Part shown: positions 13,383 through 38,186 of the stretch, in pieces
Position numbering within the stretch: the first letter of the stretch is position 1
Layout: each line of letters opens with the position of its first letter
Origin: Gemmatimonadota bacterium
GTDB taxonomy: Bacteria > Gemmatimonadota > Gemmatimonadetes > Palauibacterales > Palauibacteraceae
Reading direction: 5' to 3'
Length of the DNA: 58,707 nucleotides
NCBI GenBank assembly: GCA_039588495.1
Contig: JBDGZR010000014.1
Coordinates: 1 to 58,707, forward strand
Notes under the pieces: model-generated
What the model saw: the letters and a program-made list of their open reading frames with translations, nothing else
Told to the model about the DNA's origin: nothing
The model's database searches: none
Made by a program: the position numbers and the translations under genes

Positions 13383-14150
13383 CTATTCTGGTGCCGGTTT
13401 GGTGATCTGCCTCTCCCAGATGTAGTCCGTGTGCGAGTCGCAGATCTCGCTGAATCGGTCGAGCGCGATCGGGTTCTCCTCGAACAGGTCCTCGAAGATC
13501 GCGCTTCTCGCGGCGAGCAGAGAGTTCAGGTCTACGGCGTCGATCACCGAGATCCTGCGGTACTGGCCGCCGATGTTGTGCTCCAGCCAGCCCCAGCTGG
13601 TGATCGTCCCCTCTTCCACGTGCTTGTTGTAGACGTCCGCGAATACGTTCTCGACGATACGGGACGCGCGGTCCTCCTCCGTGAAATCGCACACCATGTA
13701 CGTGGACAGCGACACGGACGGACGACCCTGCGCGAGCGTGGGATCGGAGGCCGCGGCCATCGTCCAGACGTAGTCGTCGTGTGACGGGCAGACCTGGGTC
13801 AACTCTTCGGACGCTTCCCCGGCTTCCGCGATCATGTCATCGATCAGGGCGTCGCGGGCGGTCATGACCGAGGGGACGTCGGCCGACACCATGTAAAGCA
13901 AGCGGCGCCAGTGGCCGCCGGTGTGGTGGGAGTACCAGCCCCAGGCGCTGATGGCGCCGCTGTCGATGTGCCGATCCAGGATCGGCCCGATGCTCTCGGC
14001 GATGATCGTGTCCGCTCGAGCCTCCTTCGACTCGTTGCAGTGGAAGTAGACACCGAAAACGGCGGGATCCGGCACGTCATCCTGTGCGAGAGCCGGCACC
14101 GGCGCCAACAGAGCGCACAGCGCCGCCGCGAGGGTGAGTCGCGACTTCAT
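13383..14150 (-). CDS. Secreted protein with two tandem ~115-aa domains, unknown family (paralog A)
   Basis: Signal peptide MKSRLTLAAALCALLAPVPALAQ. Internal duplication; each half carries C..ADxI..G.I[ST].W[GS]W..H..GG.[WY]RR..C.[SA]H.DY[IV]W. It is a paralog of 28598..29362. Confidence 0.8.
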   Translation of the reverse strand: MKSRLTLAAALCALLAPVPALAQDDVPDPAVFGVYFHCNESKEARADTIIAESIGPILDRHIDSGAISAWGWYSHHTGGHWRRLLYMVSADVPSVMTARDALIDDMIAEAGEASEELTQVCPSHDDYVWTMAAASDPTLAQGRPSVSLSTYMVCDFTEEDRASRIVENVFADVYNKHVEEGTITSWGWLEHNIGGQYRRISVIDAVDLNSLLAARSAIFEDLFEENPIALDRFSEICDSHTDYIWERQITKPAPE

Positions 14151-14334: not shown

Positions 14335-15204
14335 ATGAGCGCCCAATCCGAGATCGGAGCCCTGCGGCGTATGGTGCTGAAGCACCCTCGCGAGGCTTTC
14401 GTCAGCGACCTGTCGATCGCTCGCCAGTGGCGGGACCTGGGATACCTCGGCCGACCCGAGCTCCACCGTGCCGTGGATGAGTTCGACGCCCTGGTCGAGC
14501 TGCTCGAGGGCTTCGGGATCGAGGCCCTCTTTCTTCCTCGAGACGACGATGTCGGTCTGGACTCCCTCTACGTGCGGGACGCCGCGGTCGCGACGGACGA
14601 CGGACTGATCCTCTGCAACATGGGAAAGGATGAGCGGCGGACAGAGCCCGGGGCTTTGGAGAGAGCGGTGGGCGAATGGGGACTCCCGATTCGAGGTGCC
14701 ATCACCGGAGACGGTATCCTCGAGGGCGGAGACGTCGTGTGGATCGACGACCGGACGCTCGCCGTCGGGCGTGGCTATAGGACGAACGAGGAGGGGATCC
14801 GCCAGCTCGGGGAGATCCTGGGCGACAGCATCGACGAGCTGGTCGTCGTTCCACTACCCCACCACCGCGGCCCGAACGACGTCTTTCACCTGATGTCCGT
14901 GCTTAGCCCTATCGACAGGGACCTGGCGCTCGTCTACTCGCCGCTGCTCCCGGTGCCGTTTCGCGAGTGGCTGCTCGCGCGCGGTACATGGCTCGTCGAG
15001 ACTCCCGAGGGCGAGTTCGATTCTCTCGGCTGCAACCTCCTCACTTTGGCTCCCCGGCGGTGCGTGGCGGTCGCGGGGAATCCGGCAACTCTTGGGCGGC
15101 TCGAATCCGCAGGCGTGGAAGTCCACGTCCTGCGTGGCCAGGAGATGTGCCTCAAGGGGCTCGGCGGCCCCACCTGCTTGACCCGGCCCCTGGAACGAGG
15201 CTAG
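14335..15204 (+). CDS. Dimethylarginine dimethylaminohydrolase / amidinotransferase-superfamily hydrolase
   Basis: 289 aa. Guanidino-modifying-enzyme pattern with the C-terminal nucleophile motif GLGGPTCLTRPL, plus an internal HLMSV. Confidence 0.78.
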   Translation: MSAQSEIGALRRMVLKHPREAFVSDLSIARQWRDLGYLGRPELHRAVDEFDALVELLEGFGIEALFLPRDDDVGLDSLYVRDAAVATDDGLILCNMGKDERRTEPGALERAVGEWGLPIRGAITGDGILEGGDVVWIDDRTLAVGRGYRTNEEGIRQLGEILGDSIDELVVVPLPHHRGPNDVFHLMSVLSPIDRDLALVYSPLLPVPFREWLLARGTWLVETPEGEFDSLGCNLLTLAPRRCVAVAGNPATLGRLESAGVEVHVLRGQEMCLKGLGGPTCLTRPLERG

Positions 15205-15240
15205 CGGGCCTTCGGGTCGGCCCCGACGTCGAGCCCCGGC

Positions 15241-16833
15241 CTACCGGGCGTGCTTCCCGGCCCGGAGCACCTCCCGCGCGGCGTTGTACCCGGCCGTGCC
15301 GCCGACCCCACCACCCGGATGGGTGCCCGCGCCGCACAGGTAGAGATCCCGAATCGGCGTTCGGTATTGGGCGCATTCGGGAACGGGCCGCATGAAGAAG
15401 AGCTGGTCGAGCGCCATCTCCCCGTGGGATGCGCACCCTCCGGCGAGCCCGTACACATCCTCGAGATCCGCCGGCGTGGCCACATGCCGGTCGAGAACCG
15501 CCTGGTCGATGCCCGGCGCGTACTCGGAGAGCGTCTCCACGACGCGATCGCCCAGCGCCTCTCTCCGATCCGCGTCCCAGCACCCCTCCTTCAGCTCGTA
15601 GGGAGCGTACTGGACGTAGACCGACATCGCGTGCTGTCCCGGTGGAGCGAGGGTCGGGTCGGTCAGGGAGGGGATAACGGCCTCCAGGTAGGGAGAGCGG
15701 GACACCCCTCCGTACTTGGCGTCGTCGTACGCCCGCTCCAGATAGTCGAGGCTGGGGCTGATGCGGACGACGCCCTCGAGGAGCTCCGGGTGGTCGGCCG
15801 TTCCGCCGAACCGGGGAAGCTCCGCCAGCGCCAGGTGCACCTTCGCGAACGCGCCCCGGGTGCGGATGTTCTTCACCTTCCTGACGAACTCGGGATCCAG
15901 CTCGGTCGGCTCGACGAGCCCGAGGAAGGTGCGCTTCGGGTCCGCGTTGGACACGACCCGAGCGGCGTCGATCTCTTCGCCGTCGCTCAGAACGACCCCG
16001 GTGACACTCCCTTCCGTGGTGCGGATCCGCTCGATCTCGGCGCCGGTGCGGATGCGAGCGCCATTGGCCAGGGCGGCCTCTGCCAGGGCTTCGGTAAAAC
16101 TGCCCATCCCGCCGGTGACGAGCTCGGTCCTTCGCAGCACCTCGGCCTCGGGCGACAGCCCGCCCAGCAGCAGGTAGGCCGTGCCGGACGCCCGCGGGCC
16201 GAGGAAGATCCCGCTCACGCCAAGCGCGGCCAGGAGTCCCTGCAGCGGCTCCGATTCGAACCACTCATCCAGCAGCTCGGCGGCCGACATCGGCAGCACG
16301 CGCAGGACCTCGGTCAGCTCCCTCCGCCCCAGACGACGCAGGCGCAGACCCAGCTCCATGAAGGCCAGAAGATCCCGCGAGGCGGCGGGTGGAAGTTCGG
16401 GAGGCGTCGTCGAGGCCACGTGTCGCAGAAACCGGACCGCTGGAGCCATCGCGGCGCCGAAGCGCGACCACCGTGCCGCATCGTCCGGGGAGTGACGTCG
16501 AATCTCTTCCGCCGTCTTCTCCGGATCCCGCCAGATGGCGAGGTGGTCTCCGCCTGGAAGGGGCGCCAGAACGGCGAGGTCCGGTCGCCGAACCTCCAGA
16601 CCTTGACCACCGAGCCCGAGGTCTCGGACCACGCGGCGATCCAGGTGCCCGAGCCGGTGCGCGCAGCTATCGAAGCGGAAGCCGGGGAAGAGCTCTTCCG
16701 TGACGGCCGCACCCCCCACGACCTCGCGACGCTCCAAAATGAGGACGCTCAAGCCGGCCCGCGCCAGATAGGCGGCGCAGACCAGCCCGTTGTGACCGGC
16801 TCCGACGAGCACCGCGTCGTATCTCTCGCTCAC
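15241..16833 (-). CDS. FAD-dependent oxidoreductase, PYROXD2 / COG1233 (phytoene-desaturase-related) type, copy 1
   Basis: GTG at 16833 overlaps the upstream stop (GTGA). N-terminal dinucleotide fold YDAVLVGAGHNGLVCAAYLARAG. C-terminal GAGTHPGGGV. About half its residues match the adjacent copy by eye. Confidence 0.85.
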   Translation of the reverse strand: MSERYDAVLVGAGHNGLVCAAYLARAGLSVLILERREVVGGAAVTEELFPGFRFDSCAHRLGHLDRRVVRDLGLGGQGLEVRRPDLAVLAPLPGGDHLAIWRDPEKTAEEIRRHSPDDAARWSRFGAAMAPAVRFLRHVASTTPPELPPAASRDLLAFMELGLRLRRLGRRELTEVLRVLPMSAAELLDEWFESEPLQGLLAALGVSGIFLGPRASGTAYLLLGGLSPEAEVLRRTELVTGGMGSFTEALAEAALANGARIRTGAEIERIRTTEGSVTGVVLSDGEEIDAARVVSNADPKRTFLGLVEPTELDPEFVRKVKNIRTRGAFAKVHLALAELPRFGGTADHPELLEGVVRISPSLDYLERAYDDAKYGGVSRSPYLEAVIPSLTDPTLAPPGQHAMSVYVQYAPYELKEGCWDADRREALGDRVVETLSEYAPGIDQAVLDRHVATPADLEDVYGLAGGCASHGEMALDQLFFMRPVPECAQYRTPIRDLYLCGAGTHPGGGVGGTAGYNAAREVLRAGKHAR

Positions 16834-18416
16834 GGCCGGTGCTCTTTCAGGATCTGCTGGGCCGCCAGCCGCCCGGGGGCGCCGCACACACCACCACCCG
16901 GATGGGTGCCGGAGCCGCACTGGTACAGGTTCGCGAGCGGCGTGCGGTAGTTCGCCCAGGCCGGTGCGGGGCGCAGGAAGAAGAGCTGATGCAAGGAGAG
17001 CTCGCCGTGGAAGATGTTTCCCTCGGTGAGTCCGAACGTCTCCTCCATGTCAGCCGGCGTGACGACCTGCCGGTGGATGATGGCGTCCCTGACGTTGGGC
17101 GCGAAACGGCAGAGGGTGTCGATGACCGTGTCGCCGAACGCCTCGCGCCTCTCGTCATCCCAGCCGCCATTCAGCGCGTACGGAGCGTACTGCACGAAGA
17201 TCGACATCACGTGCTGGCCCGGCGGCGCCATGCTCGGGTCGATCATCGAGGGGATGATGATGTCCATGTAGGGACGACGCGAGAACTCGCCGTATTTGGC
17301 ATCGTCGTACGCCCGCTCCAGGTATTCGACGCTGGGACTGATCGACATGGCACCGCGCAGGTGCGGCCCGACGCCCGGCAGCGCCGTGAAATCGGGTAGC
17401 TCGGCCAGCGCGAGGTTCACCTTGCCGGACGATCCGCGGATCCGGAAGCGCCGGATCGAGTCTACGAACTCGGACGGCAGCTCATCCGGCTCGAGCAGCC
17501 CGAGAAAGGTCCGCTTGGGATCCAGGCCGGACACGACGAGGCGCGCCCTGATCTCCTCGCCGCTCTCCAGAGCGACGCCGACCGCTCTGCCACCCTCGTT
17601 GAGGATCCTCTCGACGGACGCCTCCGTCCTGATCTCAGCCCCCAGGCTTCGTGCCGCGGACGCGATCGCCTCGCTCACCGCTCCGGTCCCTCCACGCGCG
17701 AACCCCCAGGCGCGGAACGCACCGTCGATCTCGCCCATGTAGTGGTGGAGGAGCACGTACGCGGTACCGGGTGATCTCGGGCCGAGAAAGGTGCCGATGA
17801 TCCCGCTGGCCGCCATCGTAGCCTTCAGCGCCTCCGTTTCGAACCACTCGTCGAGGTAATCGGCCGAGCTCATGGTCATCAGCTTCACGAGAGCGGTGAG
17901 CTTCTCGCTTCCCAGATCGCGAAAGTGGCGCCCCAGGCGGGCCATCTTGGCCAGGTTTCCGGGTCTCATGGATCCGGGGTCAGGCGGTGCCATGCCGAGG
18001 ATCGGCTTTACGGCCATCGCGAGCTGGAGCATCAGCTGGCCGAACTCGTCGTACGCCTCCGCGTCACGCGGAGAGTGGCGGTAGATCTGCCGCCGGGTCT
18101 GATCGTGGTCGGCCCAGCGGACCAGATAGTCGTCGTTCGGAAGCGGCGTGAACGTGCTCTCGAGCGGCAGGATCTCGAGACCGTGTCGGGCGAGCTCCAG
18201 ATCCTGGATGATCTCGGGTCTGAGCAGGCTTACCACGTAGGAGCACACGCAGTACTTGAACCCGGGGTAGACCTCCTCCGTTACGGCAGCGCCTCCCAGC
18301 ACCGGCCGTCTCTCCAACACCAGGACATCGAGACCGGCGCGCGCCAGGTAGGCGGCGTTGACGAGGCCGTTGTGTCCGCCCCCGACGATCACGGCGTCGT
18401 AGTCCCGAGGCTTCAC
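16830..18416 (-). CDS. FAD-dependent oxidoreductase, PYROXD2 / COG1233 type, copy 2
   Basis: GTG at 18416 overlaps the upstream stop (GTGA). YDAVIVGGGHNGLVNAAYLARAG; VTEEVYPGFKYCVCSYVVSLLRPEIIQDLELARHGLEI closely resembles human PYROXD2 as I recall it. C-terminal GSGTHPGGGV. Confidence 0.85.
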   Translation of the reverse strand: MKPRDYDAVIVGGGHNGLVNAAYLARAGLDVLVLERRPVLGGAAVTEEVYPGFKYCVCSYVVSLLRPEIIQDLELARHGLEILPLESTFTPLPNDDYLVRWADHDQTRRQIYRHSPRDAEAYDEFGQLMLQLAMAVKPILGMAPPDPGSMRPGNLAKMARLGRHFRDLGSEKLTALVKLMTMSSADYLDEWFETEALKATMAASGIIGTFLGPRSPGTAYVLLHHYMGEIDGAFRAWGFARGGTGAVSEAIASAARSLGAEIRTEASVERILNEGGRAVGVALESGEEIRARLVVSGLDPKRTFLGLLEPDELPSEFVDSIRRFRIRGSSGKVNLALAELPDFTALPGVGPHLRGAMSISPSVEYLERAYDDAKYGEFSRRPYMDIIIPSMIDPSMAPPGQHVMSIFVQYAPYALNGGWDDERREAFGDTVIDTLCRFAPNVRDAIIHRQVVTPADMEETFGLTEGNIFHGELSLHQLFFLRPAPAWANYRTPLANLYQCGSGTHPGGGVCGAPGRLAAQQILKEHRP

Positions 18417-19615
18417 GGGGCGTTCTCCATCGCGCGTTTGCGGGGCGGGTCGTAGAACGGCTTGTTCACGACCCTCGCCTCGGCCCGCTTTCTCCGATGC
18501 TCGACGGTCACCTCCATCTCCAGCCGCGTACCCGGGCCTGCCCACCCGGTCCGGAGATGAGCCAGGGCGATGTACTGCTTGAGAACCGGCGACCAGCAAC
18601 CGCTCGTCGCGTATCCGACCTGCTCTCCCCCCGAGTAGACCGGAACCGATGTGCGCCACGCGGTGGTCGGGAGCCCGGGCGGCAGCCCGGCCTCGGCGTA
18701 GAGCCGCTCGATCGAATCCCACTCGATCTCCAAGCCCTGGAACTGCCACTCCGGTTCTCTCTCCTTCTCCGCCGCAAGGGCCTGGCGGCCCACGAACGGG
18801 CCCTTGTCAAGCTTTACGGTCCAGCCGAGATCCAACTCGAAGGGCGAGGATTTGCGCTCCTCGATCAGCGCCTTGTTCGCGGGGATGTAGTCGACGTCGA
18901 TGAGCGGCAGCCCGGCCTCGATCCTCGCCACATCCAGCGCCAATATGCCGGCCGGAATCAGACCGTACGCGGCTCCGGCCTCTACGAGCCCGTCCCAGAG
19001 AGCCACGGCCTGAGCCGCCTCGACCCAGAGCTCGTACCCGAGGTCACCCGTGTAACCAGTGCGGGAGATGGTTGCCGGGATGCCGGCCACCCGGGCGTGG
19101 GTGAGCTTGAAGAAGCCCAGGTCGCCCAGCGGGACATCCGATATCCCCTGGAGGATCTCCCGCGAGGCGGGCCCCTGGAGCGCGAGCGCCGCCAGCGCCT
19201 CGGTGATGTCCCCGATCGTGACATCGAGGCCGGTGGATACATCCTGCAGCCAGCGCAGGTTCGGCTCCGCCGCCGTGAGGCGAAAAGCATCCGGGTCGAG
19301 ACGTGACAGCGTCCCGTCATCGATGACCTTGCCCGCCTGATCGCACCAGGGGGTGTACAGAACCTGGTGCACCGCGCAGCGGGCGACGTCGCGGGGGATA
19401 AGGCGATTCAGAAAGCGCTCCGCATCGGGCCCGGTGACGTGGTACTTGTACAGAGGCGAGACGTCGATCAGCGCGGCGGCGGTGCGGATCGCGAAGTACT
19501 CGCGATCGTGAAGGAGTTCGTACGAGCCGGCCACGATATAGCCGGCCCAACGACGCCAGTTGTGCGCCTGGCAGAGAGCTGCGGTCCTGGCGTGGAACGG
19601 CGTGCCTCTGAGCAC
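18413..19615 (-). CDS. Aminomethyltransferase (GcvT/folate-binding) family protein, stand-alone
   Basis: GTG start with GAGAGGAGA upstream. GcvT-type motifs (ALIDVSPLYKYHVTGPDAERFLN, ISRTGYTGDLGYELW). No gcvH or gcvP nearby. Confidence 0.85.
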   Translation of the reverse strand: MLRGTPFHARTAALCQAHNWRRWAGYIVAGSYELLHDREYFAIRTAAALIDVSPLYKYHVTGPDAERFLNRLIPRDVARCAVHQVLYTPWCDQAGKVIDDGTLSRLDPDAFRLTAAEPNLRWLQDVSTGLDVTIGDITEALAALALQGPASREILQGISDVPLGDLGFFKLTHARVAGIPATISRTGYTGDLGYELWVEAAQAVALWDGLVEAGAAYGLIPAGILALDVARIEAGLPLIDVDYIPANKALIEERKSSPFELDLGWTVKLDKGPFVGRQALAAEKEREPEWQFQGLEIEWDSIERLYAEAGLPPGLPTTAWRTSVPVYSGGEQVGYATSGCWSPVLKQYIALAHLRTGWAGPGTRLEMEVTVEHRRKRAEARVVNKPFYDPPRKRAMENAP

Positions 19616-19823
19616 CGAACGTCTCCTCTCTCGTGACGCAACGGAGGCCGACCGTTCTCAGATGGCAGCCCCATCGCCGAGAAGCAAGGGCCGCGGGTGT
19701 GGATCAAGCCACGCGAGGCCGCCGAGGACTCGCGGAAGCAGCACGCTTGCCGGGCCGTACGGGCGCGGAGCATACTGGGCGCGTTCGTTCAGCCGTTCAC
19801 CGACTCACCGGATCGAGGAAGCC

Positions 19824-20777
19824 GTGGCCGGTTACGCGCGCGTCCAAGCGTTGATTGATGCGGATCGCCCCGCGCTGCTCGACGGGGCGCTGGGCAGCGA
19901 GCTCGTGCGCCGTGGCGTGCGCTGGCGCTGGCACGGCCTTCGCACCGATCCGCAGGAGGTCGCGTCGCTTCACGTCGAGTACATCGAAGCCGGGGCGGAC
20001 GTCATCCGCACCAACACCTCGCAGCTGAACCACCGACTCTACCTCAACGTCTTCCGCAGCCCGGACCACATGCGGCACATCGGAGCGCCGGGGCTGGAGA
20101 CGCGCGCCCATGAGCTCACGGTGCGGGCGGTCGATCTCGCCCGCCAGGCGCGCGACACGACCGGACGGGACGTGGCCATAGCCGGCGTCATGGCGCCGCT
20201 CGAGCACCCCTTCAGGCCGGACCTTTCCCCCGACCCGGCCGAGGCTCGCCCCGAGCACTGGCAGATCGCCTCCTGGCTCAAGGAGGGCGGCGTGGATCTC
20301 ATTCTCCTGGAATCCATGAACACCGTCGGCGAGGCACGGGCGGCGGCCGAGGCAGCAATCAGCTCCGGACTGCCGGTGTGGGCCAGCTTCGTGATCGGCC
20401 CGGAGGGCGACGTGCTCGGTGGTGACAACCTTGGAGAGTGCGCCCGGGCCATGCAGGCCCTCGGCGTGAAGGCCGTGCTGGTGAACTGCGCACCGCCGGA
20501 AGACATCGGCCCGGCCGTGAAGAGCCTGTCAGCCGAAACGGATCTGCCAATAGGTGCCTTCGCCCACATCGGCAAGTTCGACCCTCCCTCATGGAAGTTC
20601 GAGTTCCACCCGCAGTTCGCCGCTGCAGATGACTGGCCGCCCGGCCGCTACGCCGAGGCCGCCGCCGGCTGGCGAGATGCCGGAGCGCGCGTCGTGGGCG
20701 GGTGCTGCGGCACCGGACCCGCGCACGTAGCGGCACTGCGCGATGCGCTCGGCCCGGCAGCGGGGGAGGACGCATGA
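19824..20777 (+). CDS. Homocysteine S-methyltransferase-domain protein 1
   Basis: GTG at 19824 with GAGGAA upstream. LLDGALGSEL at the N-terminus, C-terminal GGCCGTGPAHV (Zn/Hcy-binding Cys motif). The upstream part of ORF 19560.. is not protein-like. Confidence 0.8.
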   Translation: MAGYARVQALIDADRPALLDGALGSELVRRGVRWRWHGLRTDPQEVASLHVEYIEAGADVIRTNTSQLNHRLYLNVFRSPDHMRHIGAPGLETRAHELTVRAVDLARQARDTTGRDVAIAGVMAPLEHPFRPDLSPDPAEARPEHWQIASWLKEGGVDLILLESMNTVGEARAAAEAAISSGLPVWASFVIGPEGDVLGGDNLGECARAMQALGVKAVLVNCAPPEDIGPAVKSLSAETDLPIGAFAHIGKFDPPSWKFEFHPQFAAADDWPPGRYAEAAAGWRDAGARVVGGCCGTGPAHVAALRDALGPAAGEDA

Positions 20778-21697
20778 GCTATCACGCGATCCGCTCCCGT
20801 ATCGACGGGGGTGACGTGGTGATCCTGGACGGCGCCATCGGGACCGAGATCCTCCGGCGTAACCTCTCCTGGGCCGATCATCGCCTGAAGGACGAGCCGG
20901 ATGCTATCCGCGACCTTCACGCGGACTACATCCTCGCCGGTGCGGACGTGCTCACGACGAACAGCTTTCAGCTGGCCCGCCGCAGCTTCCTGGGGCACTT
21001 CCGTGACGAGGCCCACATGCGCCACATCGGTGCGCCCGGGCTCGAGAATCGGGCTGGCGAGCTGCTGGCGGCCTCGGTGGAGCTGGCGCAGGAGGCGCGC
21101 GCCAGTGTGGCCACGGAGCGATCCGTGGCGATCGCCGGTGCCGTCACGACGCTCGAATGGTGCTTCCGTCCGGACCTGGCTCCCTCCGAAGCCCAGATGC
21201 GGGGAGAGTACCGCGAGATCATGGAGGTGCTCGCGGACGCCGGGGCGGATCTGATCCTCCTCGAAACGGTGAACAGCATCCGGGAGGCCTCGGTGGGCCT
21301 GGCGGCGGCGAGCGAGGCAGGCCTTCCCTGCTGGGTCAGCTTCGTCTGCGACGAGGATGGCCTGCTGTTTACGGGGGAGACGATGGCCCAGGCGCAGGAG
21401 GCGCTCGCCCCGCTCGAGCCGGACGCGGTCATGGTCAACTGTGCCCCGCCGGATGACACCACCGCGGGCCTTCGCGAGCTACTCGAGAGTCGGAGCGAGC
21501 CGTGCGGACTCTATCCGCACATCGGCCGCTTCGACCCGCCCGAGTGGCTGTTCACCGACGAGTATCCGCCGCCGCGCTATCTGGAGGAGGCGGAACGGTG
21601 GGCCGATATGGGGGCGCGTATCATCGGCGGATGCTGCGGCACGACCCCCGAGCACATCCAGGCGATCGCACGTCGCCTGGGCGACGGAGCAGCCTAG
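20774..21697 (+). CDS. Homocysteine S-methyltransferase-domain protein 2
   Basis: ATG at 20774 overlaps the preceding stop (ATGA). ILDGAIGTEI and GGCCGTTPEHI motifs. Paralogous to the preceding gene. Confidence 0.85.
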   Translation: MSYHAIRSRIDGGDVVILDGAIGTEILRRNLSWADHRLKDEPDAIRDLHADYILAGADVLTTNSFQLARRSFLGHFRDEAHMRHIGAPGLENRAGELLAASVELAQEARASVATERSVAIAGAVTTLEWCFRPDLAPSEAQMRGEYREIMEVLADAGADLILLETVNSIREASVGLAAASEAGLPCWVSFVCDEDGLLFTGETMAQAQEALAPLEPDAVMVNCAPPDDTTAGLRELLESRSEPCGLYPHIGRFDPPEWLFTDEYPPPRYLEEAERWADMGARIIGGCCGTTPEHIQAIARRLGDGAA

Positions 21698-21772
21698 ACC
21701 AGCTGTCGGAGAGCAGGCCTCCGAGCCGCCTTGGCCAGGAGCGAGGTGATCGAAGTGGGCGAAGCCACGCGA

Positions 21773-22306
21773 ATGCGGCGGAACGACCGGGCGATGGATG
21801 ACGGCTGGATCCGTGCGTTTCTCGCGACGGCCCCGGTCGGCGTCGTCGCGACGGTGGATGACGGACAGCCGTTCCTGAACTCCAACCTCTTCGTGTACGA
21901 CGAATCACGTCACGCGATCTACGTGCACACCGCCCGGACCGGGCGAACGCGGGGCAACATCGAGGCGGACGAGCGGGTCGCCTTCACGGCGTTCGAGATG
22001 GGTAGGCTGTTACCCGCCGACGAGGCGCTCGAGTTCAGCGTCGAATACGCCGGCGTCGTGGCCTTCGGGAGGGCGACGGTCGTCGTCGACGCCGAAGAGG
22101 CGGAGGAGGGCCTCCAGCTGCTGCTGGACAAGTACGCCCCGCAGCTGAGGCCCGGCCGCGACTATCGACCGATCACCCCCGATGAGCTGCAGCGGACCTC
22201 CGTCATGCGGATCGACGTCTCGGAATGGAGCGGAAAGCGGAAGGAGGCGGAACCCGACTTCCCGGGTGCCTTCCGCTATCGCGACCAGGCACCGGGAGGG
22301 TCGTGA
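21773..22306 (+). CDS. Pyridoxamine 5'-phosphate oxidase-like FMN-binding family protein
   Basis: The MRRNDRAMDD... N-terminus is typical of the NimA/PNPOx-like split-barrel family. The alternative TTG at 21731 lacks an SD. Confidence 0.72.
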   Translation: MRRNDRAMDDGWIRAFLATAPVGVVATVDDGQPFLNSNLFVYDESRHAIYVHTARTGRTRGNIEADERVAFTAFEMGRLLPADEALEFSVEYAGVVAFGRATVVVDAEEAEEGLQLLLDKYAPQLRPGRDYRPITPDELQRTSVMRIDVSEWSGKRKEAEPDFPGAFRYRDQAPGGS

Positions 22307-22638: not shown

Positions 22639-24750
22639 ATGAAGCTCAAGCTCCCGTTGACCGTAGCCGTCGGCGCAGCCGTCGCCATCGCCGGCTGCAC
22701 GCAGCCTGACGCCGGATCGCAAGGCACGGCCGCCGAGGGCGGAACGGTCGTCGACGGCGAGACGCTGGCCGCCGTGGGGAACGGCGAGAACTGGCTTGCC
22801 TACGGGAGGAACTTCAGCGAGCAGCGTTACAGCCCGCTCGCGCAGGTGGATGACGGCAACGTCTCCGAGCTCGGCGTCGCCTGGTACGTCGATCTGCCCA
22901 ACGACCGCTCCCTCACCGGCACCCCGCTGGCGGTGGACGGCACCCTCTACTACGAGGGGAGCTACAACGTTCTCCGTGCCGTCGATGCGAAGACCGGTGA
23001 GCTGCTGTGGGAATACGATCCGCAGGTGATCGAGACGGCAGGTGACCGACTTCGGGTGGTGTGGGACTACAGCCGCGGCATCGCCTTCTGGAAGGGTGCG
23101 GTCTACCAGGCGACGATGGACGGCCGCCTGATCGCCGTCGACGCGCGGACCGGCGCCGAGCTGTGGAGCCAGATGACCTTAGACCCGGAGCTGCCGCTCT
23201 ACATCACCGGCGTCCCCAAGGTCTTCAAGGACAAGGTGATCATCGGAAACGGCGGGACGGAGTTCGGCGCGATCCGCGGCTACGTGACAGCCTACGACGC
23301 GGCCACCGGCGAGCAGGCCTGGCGTTGGTGGACGGTGCCCGGAAACCCGGCCGACGGCTTCGAGAACGAAGCGATGAGGATGGCCGCCGAGACTTGGACG
23401 GGCGAGTGGTGGAAGGTCGGCGGCGGCGGCACGGTGTGGAACGGGATCACCTACGATCCCGATTTTGACGTCGTCTACCTCGGAACCGGCAACGGGGCTC
23501 CGTGGAACCCGAAGATCCGGAGCCCGGAGGGCGGCGACAACCTGTTCCTCTGCTCGATCGTCGCCCTCGACGCCGACACCGGCGAGTACCGCTGGCACTA
23601 CCAGACCACGCCGGCCGAGGCCTGGGACTACAACTCCAACATGGACATCGTGCTGGCTGACATCACGGTCGAGGGCCGCGACGTGAAGGCCCTCATGCAC
23701 GCCCCCAAGAACGGCTTCTTCTACGTGATCGACCGCTCAACCGGCCAGCTCATCTCGGCCGAGCCGTTCGCGAAGACGACCTGGGCCACGGAGATCGACC
23801 TCGAGACCGGCCGGCCCGTCGAGGTCCCCGGCGCCCGCTACGAGGAAGGCGAGGTGGAGATCTTCCCGAGCGCCTGGGGCGCCCACACCTGGCACGCGAT
23901 GTCGTACAACCCCGGCACCGGTCTCGCCTACGTCCCTACGATGGACATCGGCGCCGTTTACTCGGACGAGGGCATCGACATTCAGACCTGGGAGTCTCCC
24001 GACTGGACCTTCGAGGGCGCCGGACTGGACATCACGGTCGCGGGGGCCGAGACCTCGGTGAGCGCCCTCAAGGCGTGGGATCCGGTGGAGCAGAGAGCCG
24101 CCTGGGAGGTGCCGCTGCCGGGCGTCTGGAACGCGGGCACGCTGACGACGGCTGGCAACCTGGTCTTACAGGGCCGGGCGGACGGCCGGCTGTTCGCCTA
24201 TCGCGCGGACGACGGCTCGGTGCTGTGGAGCGTCGACCTCGGCTCCGGGATCTCCGCGGCTCCGATCACGTATGCGGTCGACGGCACCCAGTACGTCTCC
24301 ATCCTCGTCGGTTGGGGTGGAGGGATGCCCGCATTGGGCACCACGCTGCCGGCCCAGCATGGATGGGCCTATCGGGTGCATCCGCGCCGGCTGGTGACCT
24401 TCGCGCTCGGCGGCGAGCTGGAGCTGCCGCCCTCCCCGCCACCTTTCTTCCCCGAGCCGCTCGTCACGCCCGACTTCGTGGTCGACCCGGCGCTCGCGGA
24501 GGCCGGAGGATCGATCTTCCCCGGCAAGTGCGCGATCTGTCACGGCTTCGGGGCCGTGGCGGGCGGGTCCGCGCCGGATCTGCGCGCTTCTCCCGTCGTG
24601 CTCTCGCGCGAGGCGTTCATGGAGGTGGTGCTGGGTGGCGGCCGCAGGGAGATGGGGATGCCGCAGTTCAGCGATCTGTCCGAAGTCCAGGCCAGCGCGC
24701 TTCAACACTACATCCGCTCGCAGGTGCCGAACGAGGCGGAAGAGGAGTAG
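22639..24750 (+). CDS. PQQ-dependent alcohol dehydrogenase, quinohemoprotein type (C-terminal cytochrome c domain)
   Basis: 703 aa. Lipoprotein-type signal (VAIAGC). Eight-bladed propeller W-motif repeats. C-terminal heme site CAICHG with a downstream Met. CAGGAGG SD. Confidence 0.9.
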   Translation: MKLKLPLTVAVGAAVAIAGCTQPDAGSQGTAAEGGTVVDGETLAAVGNGENWLAYGRNFSEQRYSPLAQVDDGNVSELGVAWYVDLPNDRSLTGTPLAVDGTLYYEGSYNVLRAVDAKTGELLWEYDPQVIETAGDRLRVVWDYSRGIAFWKGAVYQATMDGRLIAVDARTGAELWSQMTLDPELPLYITGVPKVFKDKVIIGNGGTEFGAIRGYVTAYDAATGEQAWRWWTVPGNPADGFENEAMRMAAETWTGEWWKVGGGGTVWNGITYDPDFDVVYLGTGNGAPWNPKIRSPEGGDNLFLCSIVALDADTGEYRWHYQTTPAEAWDYNSNMDIVLADITVEGRDVKALMHAPKNGFFYVIDRSTGQLISAEPFAKTTWATEIDLETGRPVEVPGARYEEGEVEIFPSAWGAHTWHAMSYNPGTGLAYVPTMDIGAVYSDEGIDIQTWESPDWTFEGAGLDITVAGAETSVSALKAWDPVEQRAAWEVPLPGVWNAGTLTTAGNLVLQGRADGRLFAYRADDGSVLWSVDLGSGISAAPITYAVDGTQYVSILVGWGGGMPALGTTLPAQHGWAYRVHPRRLVTFALGGELELPPSPPPFFPEPLVTPDFVVDPALAEAGGSIFPGKCAICHGFGAVAGGSAPDLRASPVVLSREAFMEVVLGGGRREMGMPQFSDLSEVQASALQHYIRSQVPNEAEEE

Positions 24751-31803: not shown

Positions 31804-33597
31804 CTACCGTCCGAAAACCGCCAGGAGACCTGTCGTAAGGAAGGGGATGTAGGTGATCAGCAGCACTCCCACGCCCAGAATGAGGAGGAACGGCACGGCG
31901 GCGCGGTAGAGGTCGAGCAGGGGCCTATCGAAGCGGTAGGACGCGAGGAAGAGGTTGAGCCCGACGGGGGGCGTCAGGTACCCGAGCTCGAGGTTGGCCA
32001 CGAAGATGATCCCCAGGTGGATCGGGTGGATCCCGAACGCCGCGCCCAGGGGCACGATGAGCGGCACGATCACCACGGTGGCCGAGAAGATGTCCATCAC
32101 CGCGCCGACCAGGAGGAGGAAGAGGTTCAGGCAGAGCAGGAAGACGATCCGCGAGTCGATATGGCTCTGCACCCACTCGAGCGCGCGACTCGGGATCATC
32201 GCGTCTACCATGTAGCTGCTGAACCCCATCGCCATGCCGAGGATGAGCAGCACGCCCCCGATCAGCACGAGACACTGGTGGAAGACGCGCGCCAGATCGC
32301 TGCCCAGCGAGACGTCGCGGTGCACGAAACACTGGACGACGACGGCGTAGAGCGCCGCGAGCGCCGCCGCCTCCACCAGCGTGGCGATCCCCCTGAAGAT
32401 CACGAACAGGACGAGGATCGGAAGGAGTAGCTCCCACTTCGCGTCCCAGAGCGCCCGTAACGCCTCCCGCCGCTCGAACGGCCTGCGCTCGACTCCGCTC
32501 TTCATCCCCTCGCGCACTCCCCAGGCCGCGACCAGCGAGATGAGCAGGATCCCGGGGATGATCCCACCGATGAAGAGGTCCTCGATGGGAACGCTCGCCA
32601 CGATCCCGTAGAGGATCAGGGGAAGAGCCGGCGGAAGAAGCAGGCCGAGCGAGCCGGACGCCGTCAGCAGGCCGAGCGAGAAACGCTCGTTGTAGCGATC
32701 CTCCCGGAGAACCTGGAACAGGAGGGCGCCGAGGGCGAGAATCGTCACGCCCGAGCCGCCGGTGAAGACGGTGAAGAAGCCGCAGACGAAGGCGCAGACG
32801 ACCGCCGTTCCACCAGGCACCCACCCTACGAAAGCGCGAAAGAGGTTCAGAAGCCTCGATGACGCCTTCCCTTCGGCGAGAAAGAAGCCGACCAGCGTAA
32901 AGAGCGGAATCGCGGCGAGGGTCGGATTCACCGATAGGCTGTACGTCTCGATCAGGACCGCCACCGGCGGGACTCCATCCGCCATGAAGAGGAGAGCGGC
33001 AATCCCCCCGAGCGCGGCGAAGATCGGACCTCCCAGAAGGGTGGCCGTGAGCACGAGCAGAACGCCGGGCCAGCTCGGTTTGGCCTCCAGGATCCCCGGG
33101 AACTGCGCCAGGAGAAGGCCCACGACGACGCCGAAAATGGCCACCGACCTCCCCTTCCAGCTGTCGGCCGAGCGCCAGACCAGCCTGAGCCCGATCAGCG
33201 CGAAGGCGATGGGCATCACGACCTGAGCCACCCACACGGGGATCATCTGGGTGAGCATCGTCCCGGCGAGCCTTTCCTCCAGAACGAGATCGATGCCGGC
33301 TCGGAAGAAGAGCGCGCAGACGCCGGCAGCGACCGCCGAGGCGAGGCGCCCTCCCGCCGTTCGTATCTTGCCCTCGGGGAGGAGCTGGCCGGTGGCAAGG
33401 GAAAGGAGCCGTCCATCGCGAGCGGCCAACGCGGCACCGAGGAAGGCCACCCAGAGCGTCAGGTGCCGCTCGACCGAGATCGCCGCCGGAATCCCCGTTC
33501 CGAGCTTGCGGAGCGGGATCTCCAGGAGCGGCAGGAGGACCATCGCGCCCAGTGCGAGGCCCGCCGTCGCCTCTTCGAGCTTTCGGAAGGCTTTCAA
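31804..33597 (-). CDS. TRAP transporter fused small/large permease (DctQ-DctM fusion)
   Basis: 597 aa, about 16-17 predicted TM segments. N-terminal DctQ-like part followed by a DctM-like part. TTG start. Downstream of the DctP-type gene. Confidence 0.88.
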   Translation of the reverse strand: MKAFRKLEEATAGLALGAMVLLPLLEIPLRKLGTGIPAAISVERHLTLWVAFLGAALAARDGRLLSLATGQLLPEGKIRTAGGRLASAVAAGVCALFFRAGIDLVLEERLAGTMLTQMIPVWVAQVVMPIAFALIGLRLVWRSADSWKGRSVAIFGVVVGLLLAQFPGILEAKPSWPGVLLVLTATLLGGPIFAALGGIAALLFMADGVPPVAVLIETYSLSVNPTLAAIPLFTLVGFFLAEGKASSRLLNLFRAFVGWVPGGTAVVCAFVCGFFTVFTGGSGVTILALGALLFQVLREDRYNERFSLGLLTASGSLGLLLPPALPLILYGIVASVPIEDLFIGGIIPGILLISLVAAWGVREGMKSGVERRPFERREALRALWDAKWELLLPILVLFVIFRGIATLVEAAALAALYAVVVQCFVHRDVSLGSDLARVFHQCLVLIGGVLLILGMAMGFSSYMVDAMIPSRALEWVQSHIDSRIVFLLCLNLFLLLVGAVMDIFSATVVIVPLIVPLGAAFGIHPIHLGIIFVANLELGYLTPPVGLNLFLASYRFDRPLLDLYRAAVPFLLILGVGVLLITYIPFLTTGLLAVFGR

Positions 33598-33639
33598 GGA
33601 CGGAGGCTCAGTCTCTGTCTTGTGTCTGGCGAAGCCGGA

Positions 33640-34692
33640 TCAGGGACTCGAGCCCGCGGCAGCCGCCGGGCCGCGCCGGTACTCGGCGCGATACTGGAGA
33701 GCGAGATCCAGAACGTCTGCAGGAACCATAGTGGTCCGGAAACTCTCCGCGAAAGACTCCGCCGCCGCTCGCCAGGGATTGGCTTCCCCCTCGACGTCCA
33801 CGCGAATCACCTCGAGGCCTCGCATGATCATCTCCGCCAGAGACTCCGCGTCCTTTTCGGGAATCTCGACCGCCTGCCGCTCGCCGGCCCGACGAGCCGA
33901 CTCGAGGAGCGCCTCGCGATCGTCTTCCGACATCTTCTCCCAGGCTCTCTTGTCGATGACGGTAGCTCCGACGAGGGGGGCGAAGCCCGGAGACAGCACG
34001 TATGGCGTGTGCCGGTACCACTGAAACGCGAGAGCACCGAGCGGCGGAGCCGGCAGACCGTCGATCATCCCGCTCTGCAGACCGACCATGATGTCGGTCG
34101 ATGAGAGCACGACGGGGTTGTAGCCGTTCTGTCTCCAGAGACGCGTCATCCGGTCGTCTCCCGCCCCCGTGTACATCTTCACCCGCCTGAGATCCGAGAC
34201 CGTGGGAGTCGGGAACTTCGAGAAGAAATGCAGCCACCCGCCGTAGCCCCAGTGGAGGGTCACGAGTCCCTGCTCCTCCAGCCGCTGCCTCAGCAGCGGC
34301 CCCAGGCGATGGAGGACGAAAAAGAATTCCTCGATCGAGGCGAAGAAGAGCGGGATCTGGAAGACGTTGAACGCATCGTCCAGCTCGGCCAGCCCCGTCA
34401 CGGTCAGCGTCGCTCCCTGAAGCTGCCCGTGCCGGATCTTGCGCAGCGTGGCCCGATCGTCGCCCGCAACGCCGCCCGGGTAGATGACGAGTCGCACCCT
34501 TCCGTTCGTGGCCTGCTGCCACTCGTGACCCATGTCCTCGAGTATGCGGTGCCACGGCGAGCCGTCGGGCGCGAGAGTGGCGAGCTTTACACGCGCTCTC
34601 TGCGCCAGAGCCTCGTCGGGTGCGAACGCCACCAGGCATCCCATCGCGAGCGCCGCGACCCGTAGCACCCGGTACCTATGTCTCCACGTCAT
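33640..34692 (-). CDS. TRAP transporter substrate-binding protein (DctP/TatP type)
   Basis: ATG at 34692. Signal VAALAMGCLVAFAPDEALAQ. Periplasmic-binding-protein length and gene context. Confidence 0.82.
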   Translation of the reverse strand: MTWRHRYRVLRVAALAMGCLVAFAPDEALAQRARVKLATLAPDGSPWHRILEDMGHEWQQATNGRVRLVIYPGGVAGDDRATLRKIRHGQLQGATLTVTGLAELDDAFNVFQIPLFFASIEEFFFVLHRLGPLLRQRLEEQGLVTLHWGYGGWLHFFSKFPTPTVSDLRRVKMYTGAGDDRMTRLWRQNGYNPVVLSSTDIMVGLQSGMIDGLPAPPLGALAFQWYRHTPYVLSPGFAPLVGATVIDKRAWEKMSEDDREALLESARRAGERQAVEIPEKDAESLAEMIMRGLEVIRVDVEGEANPWRAAAESFAESFRTTMVPADVLDLALQYRAEYRRGPAAAAGSSP

Positions 34693-34711
34693 CCCTCTCC
34701 CTCTCCCTCTC

Positions 34712-35632
34712 CTACTCCAGGAAGTAGTCCTCCACATGATCGAGCATGTAGCGAGCGCGCTTCTGCGCGATGAGGTTCTGCAGTCGATTGTCCGGATCCT
34801 CGTGCGGGTCTATCGCCAGCGCCTCCAGCATCAGCCTCTCGAAGCGCTCCCTGTCCTGCTCCGGCAACATCACGCTCGTGGCGTAGGTGGCGTAGGTACC
34901 CGCCAACCGCCCCCCGTTCAACTCGAGAGCACGCTCGAAGTGCTTGCGCGCCTCCTCGGGAGACCCACCCATGCTGGCCGGAAGGCCGCGCAGCATGATG
35001 AACACATCGTGAATCGTGCCATCCCTGAACGTCTCATCCAGCTCGAGGACGCGCTCCATCATCGCGATTACCGCCGGCAGGTCGGCGATCAGGTCCGGAC
35101 GATCCTTGCCCCGTGAGATCGCCGCACCCCAGGCAGCCGCGGTCCAATAGAGCAGCGAAACGTCCTCCAAGGTAGTGCTGGCGACCGCAGCCTCGGGGTC
35201 GACGAGCAGGCGCTCCTCGAGCCCTGGATCCGCCAGCTCGAGGCCGCGCATGCCGTACCTCTTGGCCCTTAGAAACAGGTTCAGCGCCCGCTCCAACTGC
35301 TGCTTCGAGCGCTCGTAGTCCTCTTCCTCCAGGAGAATCGCGTCGGTCTCGACGCACACGTAGGCGTACTGAGCGAACCCCTGGGTCGCGTTGAGCAGCA
35401 ACCGGTCGCTCTCGGGCTGCTTCGTGAGCAGACCCTCGACCGTCGAGAGCGCGAAGGGGATGGACTCGCAGACGAACTCGGGATCGTCCCCGGACGACCA
35501 CACTTCGGCGGTCGATTCCATCATTTCCGTCACGCTGTTGGCGGCCATCTTGTTGACGGCACCGCAACCGCTCAACGGAAGGAGAATGAGCGACGCGACC
35601 GTCCAGACGGCTTTTCCGACGCTTCGCTGCAT
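34712..35632 (-). CDS. TRAP-associated TPR-like lipoprotein (TatT family)
   Basis: ATG at 35632. Lipobox LLPLSGC. All-helical repeat protein immediately upstream of the TRAP binding protein and permease. It resembles the T. pallidum TatT family as I recall it. Confidence 0.7.
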   Translation of the reverse strand: MQRSVGKAVWTVASLILLPLSGCGAVNKMAANSVTEMMESTAEVWSSGDDPEFVCESIPFALSTVEGLLTKQPESDRLLLNATQGFAQYAYVCVETDAILLEEEDYERSKQQLERALNLFLRAKRYGMRGLELADPGLEERLLVDPEAAVASTTLEDVSLLYWTAAAWGAAISRGKDRPDLIADLPAVIAMMERVLELDETFRDGTIHDVFIMLRGLPASMGGSPEEARKHFERALELNGGRLAGTYATYATSVMLPEQDRERFERLMLEALAIDPHEDPDNRLQNLIAQKRARYMLDHVEDYFLE

Positions 35633-35744
35633 GCCCACCCTTGCTCTGGTCACGTCGTCGATCGGCAGCGACTGCTGCCGGCACCTCAGATCTGGCACCA
35701 CGAGGTTCGGCACCCCAACATAAGGAGGGCTTGCGCGGAACGGC

Positions 35745-38152: not shown

Positions 38153-38186
38153 GCCGAGCCCGCTCGGTCCGAAGGGGAGGTGCGCG

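Follow-up and report, generated by a model that had tools for sequence, protein, structure and literature searches.

The stretch of DNA described here, called the window throughout, comprises positions 1 to 58,707 of contig JBDGZR010000014.1 from a Gemmatimonadota bacterium (assembly GCA_039588495.1). Its G+C content is 64-69%, and the nearest relatives of its proteins are found in metagenome-assembled genomes of Gemmatimonadota. We focus on seven genes at one locus of this window (Table 1), and above all on three of them, which encode a GcvT-like folate-binding protein and two paralogous flavin adenine dinucleotide (FAD) proteins related to PYROXD2, flavoproteins A and B (FlavoA and FlavoB), and which together probably make up a split, tetrahydrofolate-linked oxidative N-demethylase. 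The remaining four genes encode a hydrolase of the ADI/DDAH superfamily (DDAH-like), two homocysteine S-methyltransferases (HMT1 and HMT2) and a Nim/PNPOx-like split-barrel protein. A preliminary description, made from the DNA letters, had assigned all seven to a single N-methyl, or one-carbon (C1), demethylation island; Pfam profiling recovered the genes with the coordinates and domain content given there.

Table 1. Genes and intergenic region of the locus (coordinates are positions in the window; strand "." marks a non-coding feature).
Feature	Coordinates	Strand	Evidence
ADI/DDAH-superfamily hydrolase (DDAH-like), 289 aa	14335-15204	+	PF02274 78.8 bits; PF19420 33.5 bits
Flavoprotein B (FlavoB), PYROXD2-type FAD protein, 530 aa	15241-16833	-	PF01593 Amino_oxidase 82 bits, N-terminal Rossmann fold
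Flavoprotein A (FlavoA), PYROXD2-type FAD protein, 528 aa	16830-18416	-	PF01593 Amino_oxidase 73 bits, N-terminal Rossmann fold
GcvT-like folate-binding protein, 400 aa, first gene of the triad	18413-19615	-	PF01571 207.7 bits; PF08669 61.6 bits
Divergent intergenic region, 208 bp, between triad operon and HMT pair	19616-19823	.	read from sequence
HMT1, homocysteine S-methyltransferase family, 317 aa from GTG	19824-20777	+	PF02574 180.8 bits
HMT2, homocysteine S-methyltransferase family, 307 aa	20774-21697	+	PF02574 209.2 bits (scored on the longer open reading frame 20702-21697)
Nim/PNPOx-like split-barrel protein, 191 aa	21731-22306	+	PF12900 86.5 bits; PF01243

The order of the minus-strand operon, the divergence of the HMT pair from it and the convergence of the DDAH-like gene with the FlavoB gene (gap of 36 nt) were all confirmed on reading the sequence. 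Both junctions of the triad, GcvT-like/FlavoA and FlavoA/FlavoB, show a four-nucleotide stop/start overlap (GTGA), and HMT1 and HMT2 are joined by the four-nucleotide overlap ATGA that had been described for them. The GTG start of HMT1 is a plausible one, and the open reading frame (ORF) could begin as far upstream as 19560. No Rfam match at E <= 1 was obtained in the divergent intergenic region, nor anywhere in the window, so that a riboswitch or other RNA element was rejected as part of the system; a promoter scan of the same region gave no sigma-70-like site, and a terminator scan gave terminator-like sites no more often than background. The GcvT-like protein, A and B are encoded by one translationally coupled operon on the minus strand; this operon is the functional unit, which is hence smaller than the island that had been proposed.

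Conservation of this triad was analyzed in a scan of one genome per GTDB species, using an alignment of 40 family members as query, and the gene content of the loci was mapped by tblastn with the window proteins. From at least 596 loci, the 80 most similar ones were used, at 49-78% identity to FlavoA; the synteny figures accordingly cover the A clade and not the whole family. Fifty-six of these loci are well flanked (at least 3 kb upstream and 4.5 kb downstream); in 53 of them a GcvT-like gene lies within 8 kb, adjacent in 50 of the 53, and the second flavoprotein immediately follows A in 53 of the 56. The conserved adjacency of GcvT and COG1233 genes, on which the preliminary description depended, is therefore found in about ten phylum-level lineages (Gemmatimonadota, Acidobacteriota, Chloroflexota, Actinomycetota, Dormibacterota, Planctomycetota, Bacteroidota, and Gamma- and Alphaproteobacteria). 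Three arrangements occur: GcvT-A-B, all co-directional, in Gemmatimonadota, some Chloroflexota, Planctomycetota and Bacteroidota; GcvT divergent from A-B in Acidobacteriota, Actinomycetota and Dormibacterota; and A-B-GcvT in Gamma- and Alphaproteobacteria, including the isolate Kiloniella laminariae DSM 19542. Since adjacency survives rearrangement across all these lineages, there is strong evidence that the triad is a functional unit. Two complete Gemmatimonadota genomes share the triad in the order GcvT-A-B and lack the HMTs and the PNPOx-like gene.

Relatives of the flavoproteins were sought among 1.84 billion representative proteins. Those at about 45% identity include proteins named PYROXD2 by their sources from oyster, mayfly and flatworm, plus a choanoflagellate homologue. 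FlavoA aligns along its full length with PYROXD2 of the oyster Magallana gigas (45% identity, 541 aligned columns, E 2e-154), and FlavoB reaches 38% identity with the same protein (E 4e-107), which bears out the PYROXD2-type label originally given to both. The two paralogues are 50% identical to each other, and orthologues of A in other phyla lie at 49-86% identity. Both show an FAD motif of the GxGxxG form at the N-terminus (GGGHNG in A, GAGHNG in B) and GTHPGGG near the C-terminus. The PF01593 match spans residues 16-523, while PF01266 covers only short Rossmann stretches, and the Pyr_redox hits are weak and confined to some 40 N-terminal residues, i.e. the Rossmann motif. Because only this motif of about 40 residues matches the families in question, the name "pyridine nucleotide-disulfide oxidoreductase" carried by the PYROXD2 family looks like a misnomer.

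A neighbour-joining (NJ) tree of 72 sequences with 100 bootstraps separates the B sequences from A plus eukaryotic PYROXD2 (96% bootstrap). Within the latter, the GcvT-linked A clade is monophyletic (87%), and eukaryotic PYROXD2 groups with L003, a singleton of 51% identity that has no GcvT neighbour (97%). A evolves slowly, with a mean pairwise identity of 62%, and B faster, with 43%. Out of 93 near-invariant A columns, 70 are fully kept in five eukaryotic sequences and only 40 in B. Two positions serve as B signatures: a His replacing the Tyr of an S-Y motif near residue 60, and a His near residue 466 where A and PYROXD2 have Asn. The A/B split and the conservation of these columns therefore indicate that PYROXD2 is an A-type protein and B a differentiated partner.

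As for the GcvT-like protein, it carries the full T-protein architecture (PF01571 and PF08669) but lies below all curated GcvT cut-offs (TIGR00528, 168.5 versus 235.85 bits; PRK00389, 229.3 versus 300; PRK13579, 130.9 versus 459). Its top curated model is the C-terminal half of Tdm, the trimethylamine N-oxide (TMAO) demethylase, at 298 bits against a cut-off of 1100, the match being limited to model positions 386-761 of 763 and to residues 407-785 of the 9q5a chain. The same Tdm residues form the best solved relative (201 bits, versus 152 bits for true T proteins), and the GcvT-like protein aligns with this Tdm domain end to end, including the N-terminal extension. Scores against the C-terminal domains of DMGO and DMGDH are 111 and 95 bits, the LigM and DesA models give only about 62-63 bits, and the soxA model gives 174 bits versus a cut-off of 1164. 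The Asp of a DDG motif aligns with Asp96 of the Thermotoga maritima T protein (1woo), the GYTG-E and R-EAG motifs also align with 1woo, and the SRTGYTGDLGYE motif is kept in the alignment; we take the DDG Asp, GYTG-E and R-EAG to be the conserved folate-site residues of T proteins.

Further information on the triad comes from its recurrent neighbours. ORFs of the loci were clustered de novo, annotated with Pfam, NCBIfam and the PDB, and re-mapped, the counts being given over 88 loci. Most frequent is the alpha subunit of a Rieske/Ring_hydroxyl_A oxygenase (24 loci). Among solved structures it is closest to the stachydrine demethylase Stc2 (3vca/4qup) and the carnitine monooxygenase CntA, and among curated models GbcA scores highest (142-161 bits versus a cut-off of 670). 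It is followed by an APC amino-acid permease (18 loci), the formyltetrahydrofolate deformylase PurU (10 loci; 402 bits, above the cut-off of 223), an aldehyde dehydrogenase (10), a BetI-type TetR repressor (9), a class-III aminotransferase (9) and a PotF-type binding protein (6). The Rieske gene forms an operon GcvT-A-B-Rieske in Gemmatimonadota (L007, L011, L018) and Bacteroidota (L069); L012 shows A-B-Rieske on a contig that ends 602 bp upstream of A. A second GcvT-family gene, DmdA-like and with 384-400 bits just under the DmdA cut-off of 410, adjoins the triad in two Gemmatimonadota loci (L070, 11256-12449, plus strand; L071, 5136-6293, minus strand). In the cultured isolate K. laminariae (L085, NZ_KB893134.1, 270-17209) the triad is embedded in a large catabolic cluster, whose further genes encode an ABC transporter (PotF-type), a repressor (BetI-type), four enzymes (acyl-CoA dehydrogenase, class-III aminotransferase, ADP-forming acyl-CoA synthetase and aldehyde dehydrogenase) and an FNR/2Fe-2S reductase resembling those that work with Rieske monooxygenases. 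Judged by homology, these neighbours share a theme: methylated amines, many of them quaternary, would be taken up and broken down, and their C1 units would pass to the folate pool.

Concerning the HMT pair, the two proteins are 45% identical and both contain the zinc-site motifs VNCAPP and GGCCGT with their three zinc-binding cysteines. They remain below the cut-offs of characterized enzymes, both for MmuM (PRK09485; 113.7 bits for HMT1 and 147.3 for HMT2 versus 215) and for BHMT (PRK07534; 102.9 and 83.8 versus 338), so that no curated model assigns them a methyl donor. The nearest solved structure to HMT2 is Escherichia coli MmuM/YagD (5dml, 96.6 bits), BHMT giving only about 50 bits, and homologues of HMT2 at 62-85% identity are found in Gemmatimonadota, Acidobacteria, Chloroflexi, Zixibacteria and Bacteroidota. 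Outside the window the two lineages form a tandem of fixed order, HMT1 first, in five of five loci (L086-L090), and in three of these the tandem lies beside the triad: L086 has the same layout as the window; L087 (CP070823) has the pair divergent from GcvT-A-B and neither a DDAH-like nor a PNPOx-like gene; and in L090, an Acidobacteria-like arrangement, HMT-HMT-APC permease is convergent with aldehyde dehydrogenase-B-A and GcvT is divergent. The link between pair and triad is thus real and recurrent, but a minority case. Two observations on these loci may be added. The FlavoB call of L087 (5231-6009, minus strand) is just 260 aa long, next to an intact A, GcvT-like gene and HMT pair, and may represent a pseudogene or an assembly frameshift; and in L089 (632-16321, Zixibacteria) the HMT tandem is flanked by two clusters, mirror images of each other, that encode molybdopterin oxidoreductase and xanthine/CO-dehydrogenase-family subunits.

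The HMTs had been proposed to provide a second methyl outlet for the same amines, a role of little chemical plausibility, since amines of the tertiary and secondary kind do not donate methyl groups. By analogy with the Rieske oxygenase or DmdA-like enzyme that fills the equivalent position elsewhere, the pair would act upstream on an onium precursor, and is most likely one of several interchangeable first-step modules for onium (quaternary ammonium or sulfonium) substrates.

The DDAH-like label holds at the level of the superfamily (PF02274), where the His of FHLMS and the Cys of the C-terminal motif GGPTCLTRP are present, presumably the catalytic residues of guanidino-modifying enzymes. At the level of function it is not supported, the protein being far below the DDAH models (78 versus 340 bits for NF045660, 57 versus 450 for NF045658) and the ADI model (87 versus 414); the match to Pseudomonas aeruginosa DDAH (3rhy) is weak (47.9 bits), with the His of FHLMS aligned to LHLKT. 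The gene accompanies the triad in only four loci from two phyla (the window, L001, L086 and L068), and was for this reason rejected as a core component. Because it is co-directional with, and directly upstream of, the GcvT-like gene in L068 (Marinimicrobia), it may at most be an occasional feeder enzyme. Next to the DDAH-like gene of the window, a 255-aa protein without Pfam match (13383-14150, minus strand) keeps the same position in L001 (69% identity) and L086 (75%).

The PNPOx-like protein indeed has the split barrel that its name implies (PF12900/PF01243) but is closest to NimA-related proteins (1w3o, 84 bits). Apart from the window, the gene was found with the triad or the HMT pair only in the closely related contig L086 when L001-L088 were scanned, and the Pfam gene tables of L089 and L090 contain none; it was rejected as a component and is probably not part of the system. 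A dehydrogenase of the methanol/ethanol family dependent on pyrroloquinoline quinone (PQQ), with a C-terminal cytochrome c domain (22639-24750, plus strand; TIGR03075 560 bits, above cut-off), borders the locus both in the window and in L086. This quinohaemoprotein was likewise rejected as a partner, being adjacent only in the closest relatives (L001, L086), and both it and the PNPOx-like gene are bystanders. In L001 the PQQ dehydrogenase gene and the GcvT-like gene are immediate, divergent neighbours, so that the HMT-HMT-PNPOx cassette appears to have been inserted between these two genes. The demethylation island of the preliminary description accordingly finds support as regards its core triad, but not as one conserved unit, the HMT pair, the DDAH-like gene and the PNPOx-like gene all being restricted as just described.

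Outside bacteria, the family offers a second kind of partner. In P0164 (L091, 1437-3887; 816 aa), encoded on a contig with eukaryote-type neighbours, an N-terminal glutathione-dependent formaldehyde-activating (GFA) domain (PF04828) is fused to a PYROXD2-type flavoprotein, and the fusion of PF04828 with PF01593 recurs in 21 of the best 120 relatives of P0164 (P0442-P0479, P0539), which come from protist sources; one such protein is annotated as Perkinsus olseni PYROXD2. Extra-long family members were also checked for a GcvT fusion, and six of the seven have no further Pfam domain, the seventh being the GFA fusion. The bacterial folate-binding partner and the protist formaldehyde/glutathione domain therefore both point to release of a carbon at the formaldehyde level.

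A link between the human PYROXD2 locus and methylated amines had been mentioned in the preliminary description, and the literature documents it. Variants at the locus are associated with urinary trimethylamine (TMA) and plasma dimethylamine (DMA), lower expression going with higher TMA (PMC3169529), as well as with N6-methyllysine, N6,N6-dimethyllysine and N2-acetyl-N6,N6-dimethyllysine (PMC9730628, PMC7878905, PMC13352909). The metabolite quantitative trait loci (QTLs) of PYROXD2 for methyl-lysines, TMA and DMA are among the strongest in the human genome, and the protein is a conserved mitochondrial flavoprotein with biallelic variants reported in a severe infantile mitochondrial disorder (PMC8777681, PMC9730628, PMC13352909). 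The biochemical role of PYROXD2 is called unclear in papers of 2022 and July 2026 (PMC8777681, PMC13352909). A full-text literature search retrieved no paper tying PYROXD2 or "phytoene dehydrogenase-like" proteins to GcvT, folate, demethylation, betaine catabolism or operons.

Taken together, these data lead us to propose, at a probability of roughly 0.6, that the triad is a split, tetrahydrofolate-linked oxidative N-demethylase, i.e. an N-methyl-amine dehydrogenase. The proposal is made because three independent lines agree, namely synteny across phyla, the protist fusion to a formaldehyde domain and the human metabolite associations. In the suggested mechanism the PYROXD2-family flavoproteins would use FAD to oxidize a tertiary or secondary amine at its N-CH3 bond, producing an iminium, after which the GcvT-like subunit would move the formaldehyde-level carbon to tetrahydrofolate, yielding 5,10-methylene-tetrahydrofolate and the demethylated amine. 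A and B may carry out two successive demethylations, from tertiary to secondary to primary amine; alternatively, they may form a heterodimer of one catalytic and one auxiliary subunit. The HMT tandem would be a lineage-variable front end that passes the first methyl of a quaternary-ammonium or sulfonium precursor to homocysteine, a place that the Rieske oxygenase or the DmdA-like methyltransferase would take in other genomes.

Several points weigh against this proposal. The 58.7-kb window was inspected for C1 recycling genes and for a Rieske oxygenase elsewhere in it, and no purU, folD, metF, Rieske oxygenase or betaine transporter was found. The HMT pair is present in 0 of the 80 loci sampled by flavoprotein, and two of the five other HMT-pair loci (L088, L089) have no triad. 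The synteny speaks for the A clade, and the nearest bacterial relatives of eukaryotic PYROXD2, those of the L003 type, are without GcvT neighbour. The fold and the top curated model of the flavoproteins, discussed below, also belong here, as does the fact that a catalytic role of GFA domains themselves is disputed.

Other explanations share part of this evidence. The flavoproteins could oxidize an O- or S-methyl group, or an amine C-N bond so as to leave an aminomethyl fragment, with the GcvT-like protein still taking the C1 unit; the triad would then be a folate-linked oxidoreductase and not an N-demethylase. The GcvT family does hold the aryl O-demethylases LigM and DesA and the S-demethylase DmdA, homocysteine methyltransferases accept sulfonium donors too (the nearest solved structure being MmuM), and this reading can also draw on the DmdA-like neighbour that the triad has in L070 and L071 and on a flavoprotein fold that carries no chemical specificity. 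We nevertheless regard it as unlikely, given the low LigM and DesA scores beside those of Tdm and GcvT, neighbours that indicate amines (the BetI-type repressor, the Rieske proteins related to Stc2, CntA and GbcA, the permeases, PotF-type proteins and class-III aminotransferases) and human associations that all concern N-methyl amines (PMC3169529, PMC9730628). Still less probable is a variant of the glycine cleavage system, in which the GcvT-like protein would be a true aminomethyltransferase and the flavoproteins would play an L-protein-like, disulfide-reductase role. Such a variant would agree with the T-protein architecture, the PRK00389 score, the disulfide reductase implied by the PYROXD2 name and the weak Pyr_redox_2 hits on the N-terminal Rossmann motif. 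Against it, the GcvT-like protein misses the curated GcvT cut-offs and is nearer to Tdm than to T proteins, the flavoproteins have a CrtI/amine-oxidase fold and not one of the glutathione-reductase type, neither gcvH nor gcvP turned up among the ORFs of the window that were scanned, and, in the loci clustered, none of the recurrent clusters next to the triad is of a size expected for GcvH or GcvP.

The annotation "phytoene dehydrogenase-like", which sources attach to the homologues, suggests instead that the flavoproteins are desaturases or ketolases of the CrtI/CrtO type, acting on a lipophilic isoprenoid or lipid, and that the GcvT-like neighbour is unrelated. Their top curated model is indeed the beta-carotene ketolase CrtO (NF045689), yet at 324 and 358 bits they are well short of its cut-off of 1000; crtI_fam (TIGR02734) gives 122.8 and 126.7 bits versus 238.1, CrtI (4dgk) scores 81.5 bits against the flavoprotein, and identity to carotenoid enzymes is 16-20%. 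Set beside the 45% identity to animal PYROXD2, these values place the flavoproteins outside the carotenoid desaturases, as the preliminary description had supposed. In a Foldseek search with the AlphaFold2 model of FlavoA (predicted local distance difference test score, pLDDT, of 92.7), CrtI-type desaturases came first (4rep, with a template-modelling score, TM, of 0.79; also 4dgk) and flavin amine oxidases and dehydrogenases next, the amine-oxidase-type folds matched being NicA2, 6-hydroxynicotine oxidase, MAO and putrescine oxidase. The modelled fold would permit C-C as well as C-N oxidation and is hence non-discriminating; fold comparison was dropped as a means of choosing between desaturation and amine oxidation, the fold being common to both classes. 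The context also speaks against this reading: no carotenoid-biosynthesis gene occurs among the window ORFs scanned or the recurrent neighbour clusters, GcvT adjacency in 53 of 56 loci and in three arrangements cannot be chance, and a carotenoid or lipid enzyme leaves no room for the protist GFA fusions or the human methylamine associations. We consider this explanation the least probable of those discussed.

The N-demethylase proposal can be extended to the whole PYROXD2 family, which would then be an ancient class of N-methyl-amine dehydrogenases, with A/B plus GcvT in bacteria, the GFA fusion in protists and a methyl-lysine demethylase in humans. We advance this wider view tentatively, its chances being somewhat less than even. 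If it is true, A/B and the GcvT-like protein would strip the second and third methyls of trimethylammonium compounds onto tetrahydrofolate (candidate substrates being glycine betaine, gamma-butyrobetaine, delta-valerobetaine and trimethyllysine), after an interchangeable first-step enzyme, be it the Rieske oxygenase, the DmdA-like protein or the HMT tandem. Protists would have swapped the folate partner for a fused glutathione/formaldehyde domain, and human PYROXD2 would be the missing mitochondrial demethylase of free N6-methyl- and N6,N6-dimethyl-lysine, which would explain the metabolite QTLs.

The bacterial operon gives a concrete, assayable hypothesis for PYROXD2, an orphan gene of human disease and genome-wide association studies, namely that it oxidizes N-methyl groups and that the carbon goes to folate. 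If true, this would also mean a new enzyme architecture for betaine and methylamine catabolism in abundant soil phyla whose pathways are poorly charted (Acidobacteriota, Gemmatimonadota and Chloroflexota), and would affect the annotation of "phytoene dehydrogenase-like" genes in thousands of genomes.

Some other genes of the window are also worth recording. A class-III aminotransferase-family gene (55499-56824, minus strand) shares a 22-nt overlap with an APH-family phosphotransferase gene (56803-57711, minus strand), a pair that in our view resembles the kinase plus phospho-lyase couples of phospho-amine catabolism; another class-III aminotransferase is encoded at 45675-47000. A cluster for a tripartite ATP-independent periplasmic (TRAP)-type transporter (31804-35746, minus strand) encodes a fused DctQM permease, a DctP binding protein and a TAtT (T-component) protein, and an SSF-family symporter is found near it (36572-38257).

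Comparison with known systems begins with Tdm, whose C-terminal GcvT-like domain captures formaldehyde from a methylamine substrate onto tetrahydrofolate and is, among both solved structures and curated models, the closest relative of the window GcvT-like protein. The N-terminal catalytic domain of Tdm (9q5a residues 1-406) is absent from the triad, which has two flavoproteins instead, and TMAO demethylation by Tdm is redox-neutral, whereas the chemistry of the triad would be oxidative. On the flavoprotein side, eukaryotic PYROXD2, homologous to A and B along its full length, groups with A in the A/B split and, unlike the bacterial pair, is a single gene with a targeting extension; we know of no GcvT partner for it. 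CrtI, CrtD and CrtO have the fold, the N-terminal FAD motif and the C-terminal GTHPGGG in common with the flavoproteins, but these lack a carotenoid gene context and have a folate-binding protein as their constant partner.

For the first step, the closest comparisons are the betaine modules GbcAB/BmoAB, Stc2 and CntAB, a related Rieske protein being encoded directly downstream of the triad in L007, L011, L012, L018 and L069, and BHMT, to which the PF02574 methyltransferases beside the triad in the window, L086, L087 and L090 bear a likeness. Neither the Rieske neighbours nor the HMTs reach the curated cut-off of a characterized enzyme (GbcA and BHMT, respectively), and the HMTs differ further in being a fixed-order tandem.

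The proposed overall design is that of dimethylglycine dehydrogenase/oxidase (DMGDH/DMGO), sarcosine dehydrogenase (SARDH) and 4-methylaminobutanoate oxidase, where an FAD amine-oxidizing module and a GcvT-fold tetrahydrofolate module convert the C1 unit to 5,10-methylene-tetrahydrofolate, as proposed here for the triad. In the DMGDH-type enzymes, however, the flavin module belongs to the DAO family (PF01266) and is fused to GcvT in one chain, whereas in the triad it is of the CrtI/PYROXD2 type (PF01593/COG1233), consists of two differentiated paralogues and is served by a GcvT-like protein that is a separate polypeptide. A multi-subunit organization is found in the heterotetrameric sarcosine oxidase SoxABDG, in which the GcvT-like tetrahydrofolate site of SoxA serves a separate flavoprotein subunit and which has purU and folD as neighbours, just as PurU is encoded beside the triad in 10 loci; SoxA, unlike the GcvT-like protein, has a Rossmann domain of its own, SoxB is of the DAO type, and nothing in the triad corresponds to the delta and gamma subunits. 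As proposed here, the triad would work like DMGDH, SARDH and SoxABDG but stands outside those families, because its flavin module is of a different family and its parts are separate proteins.

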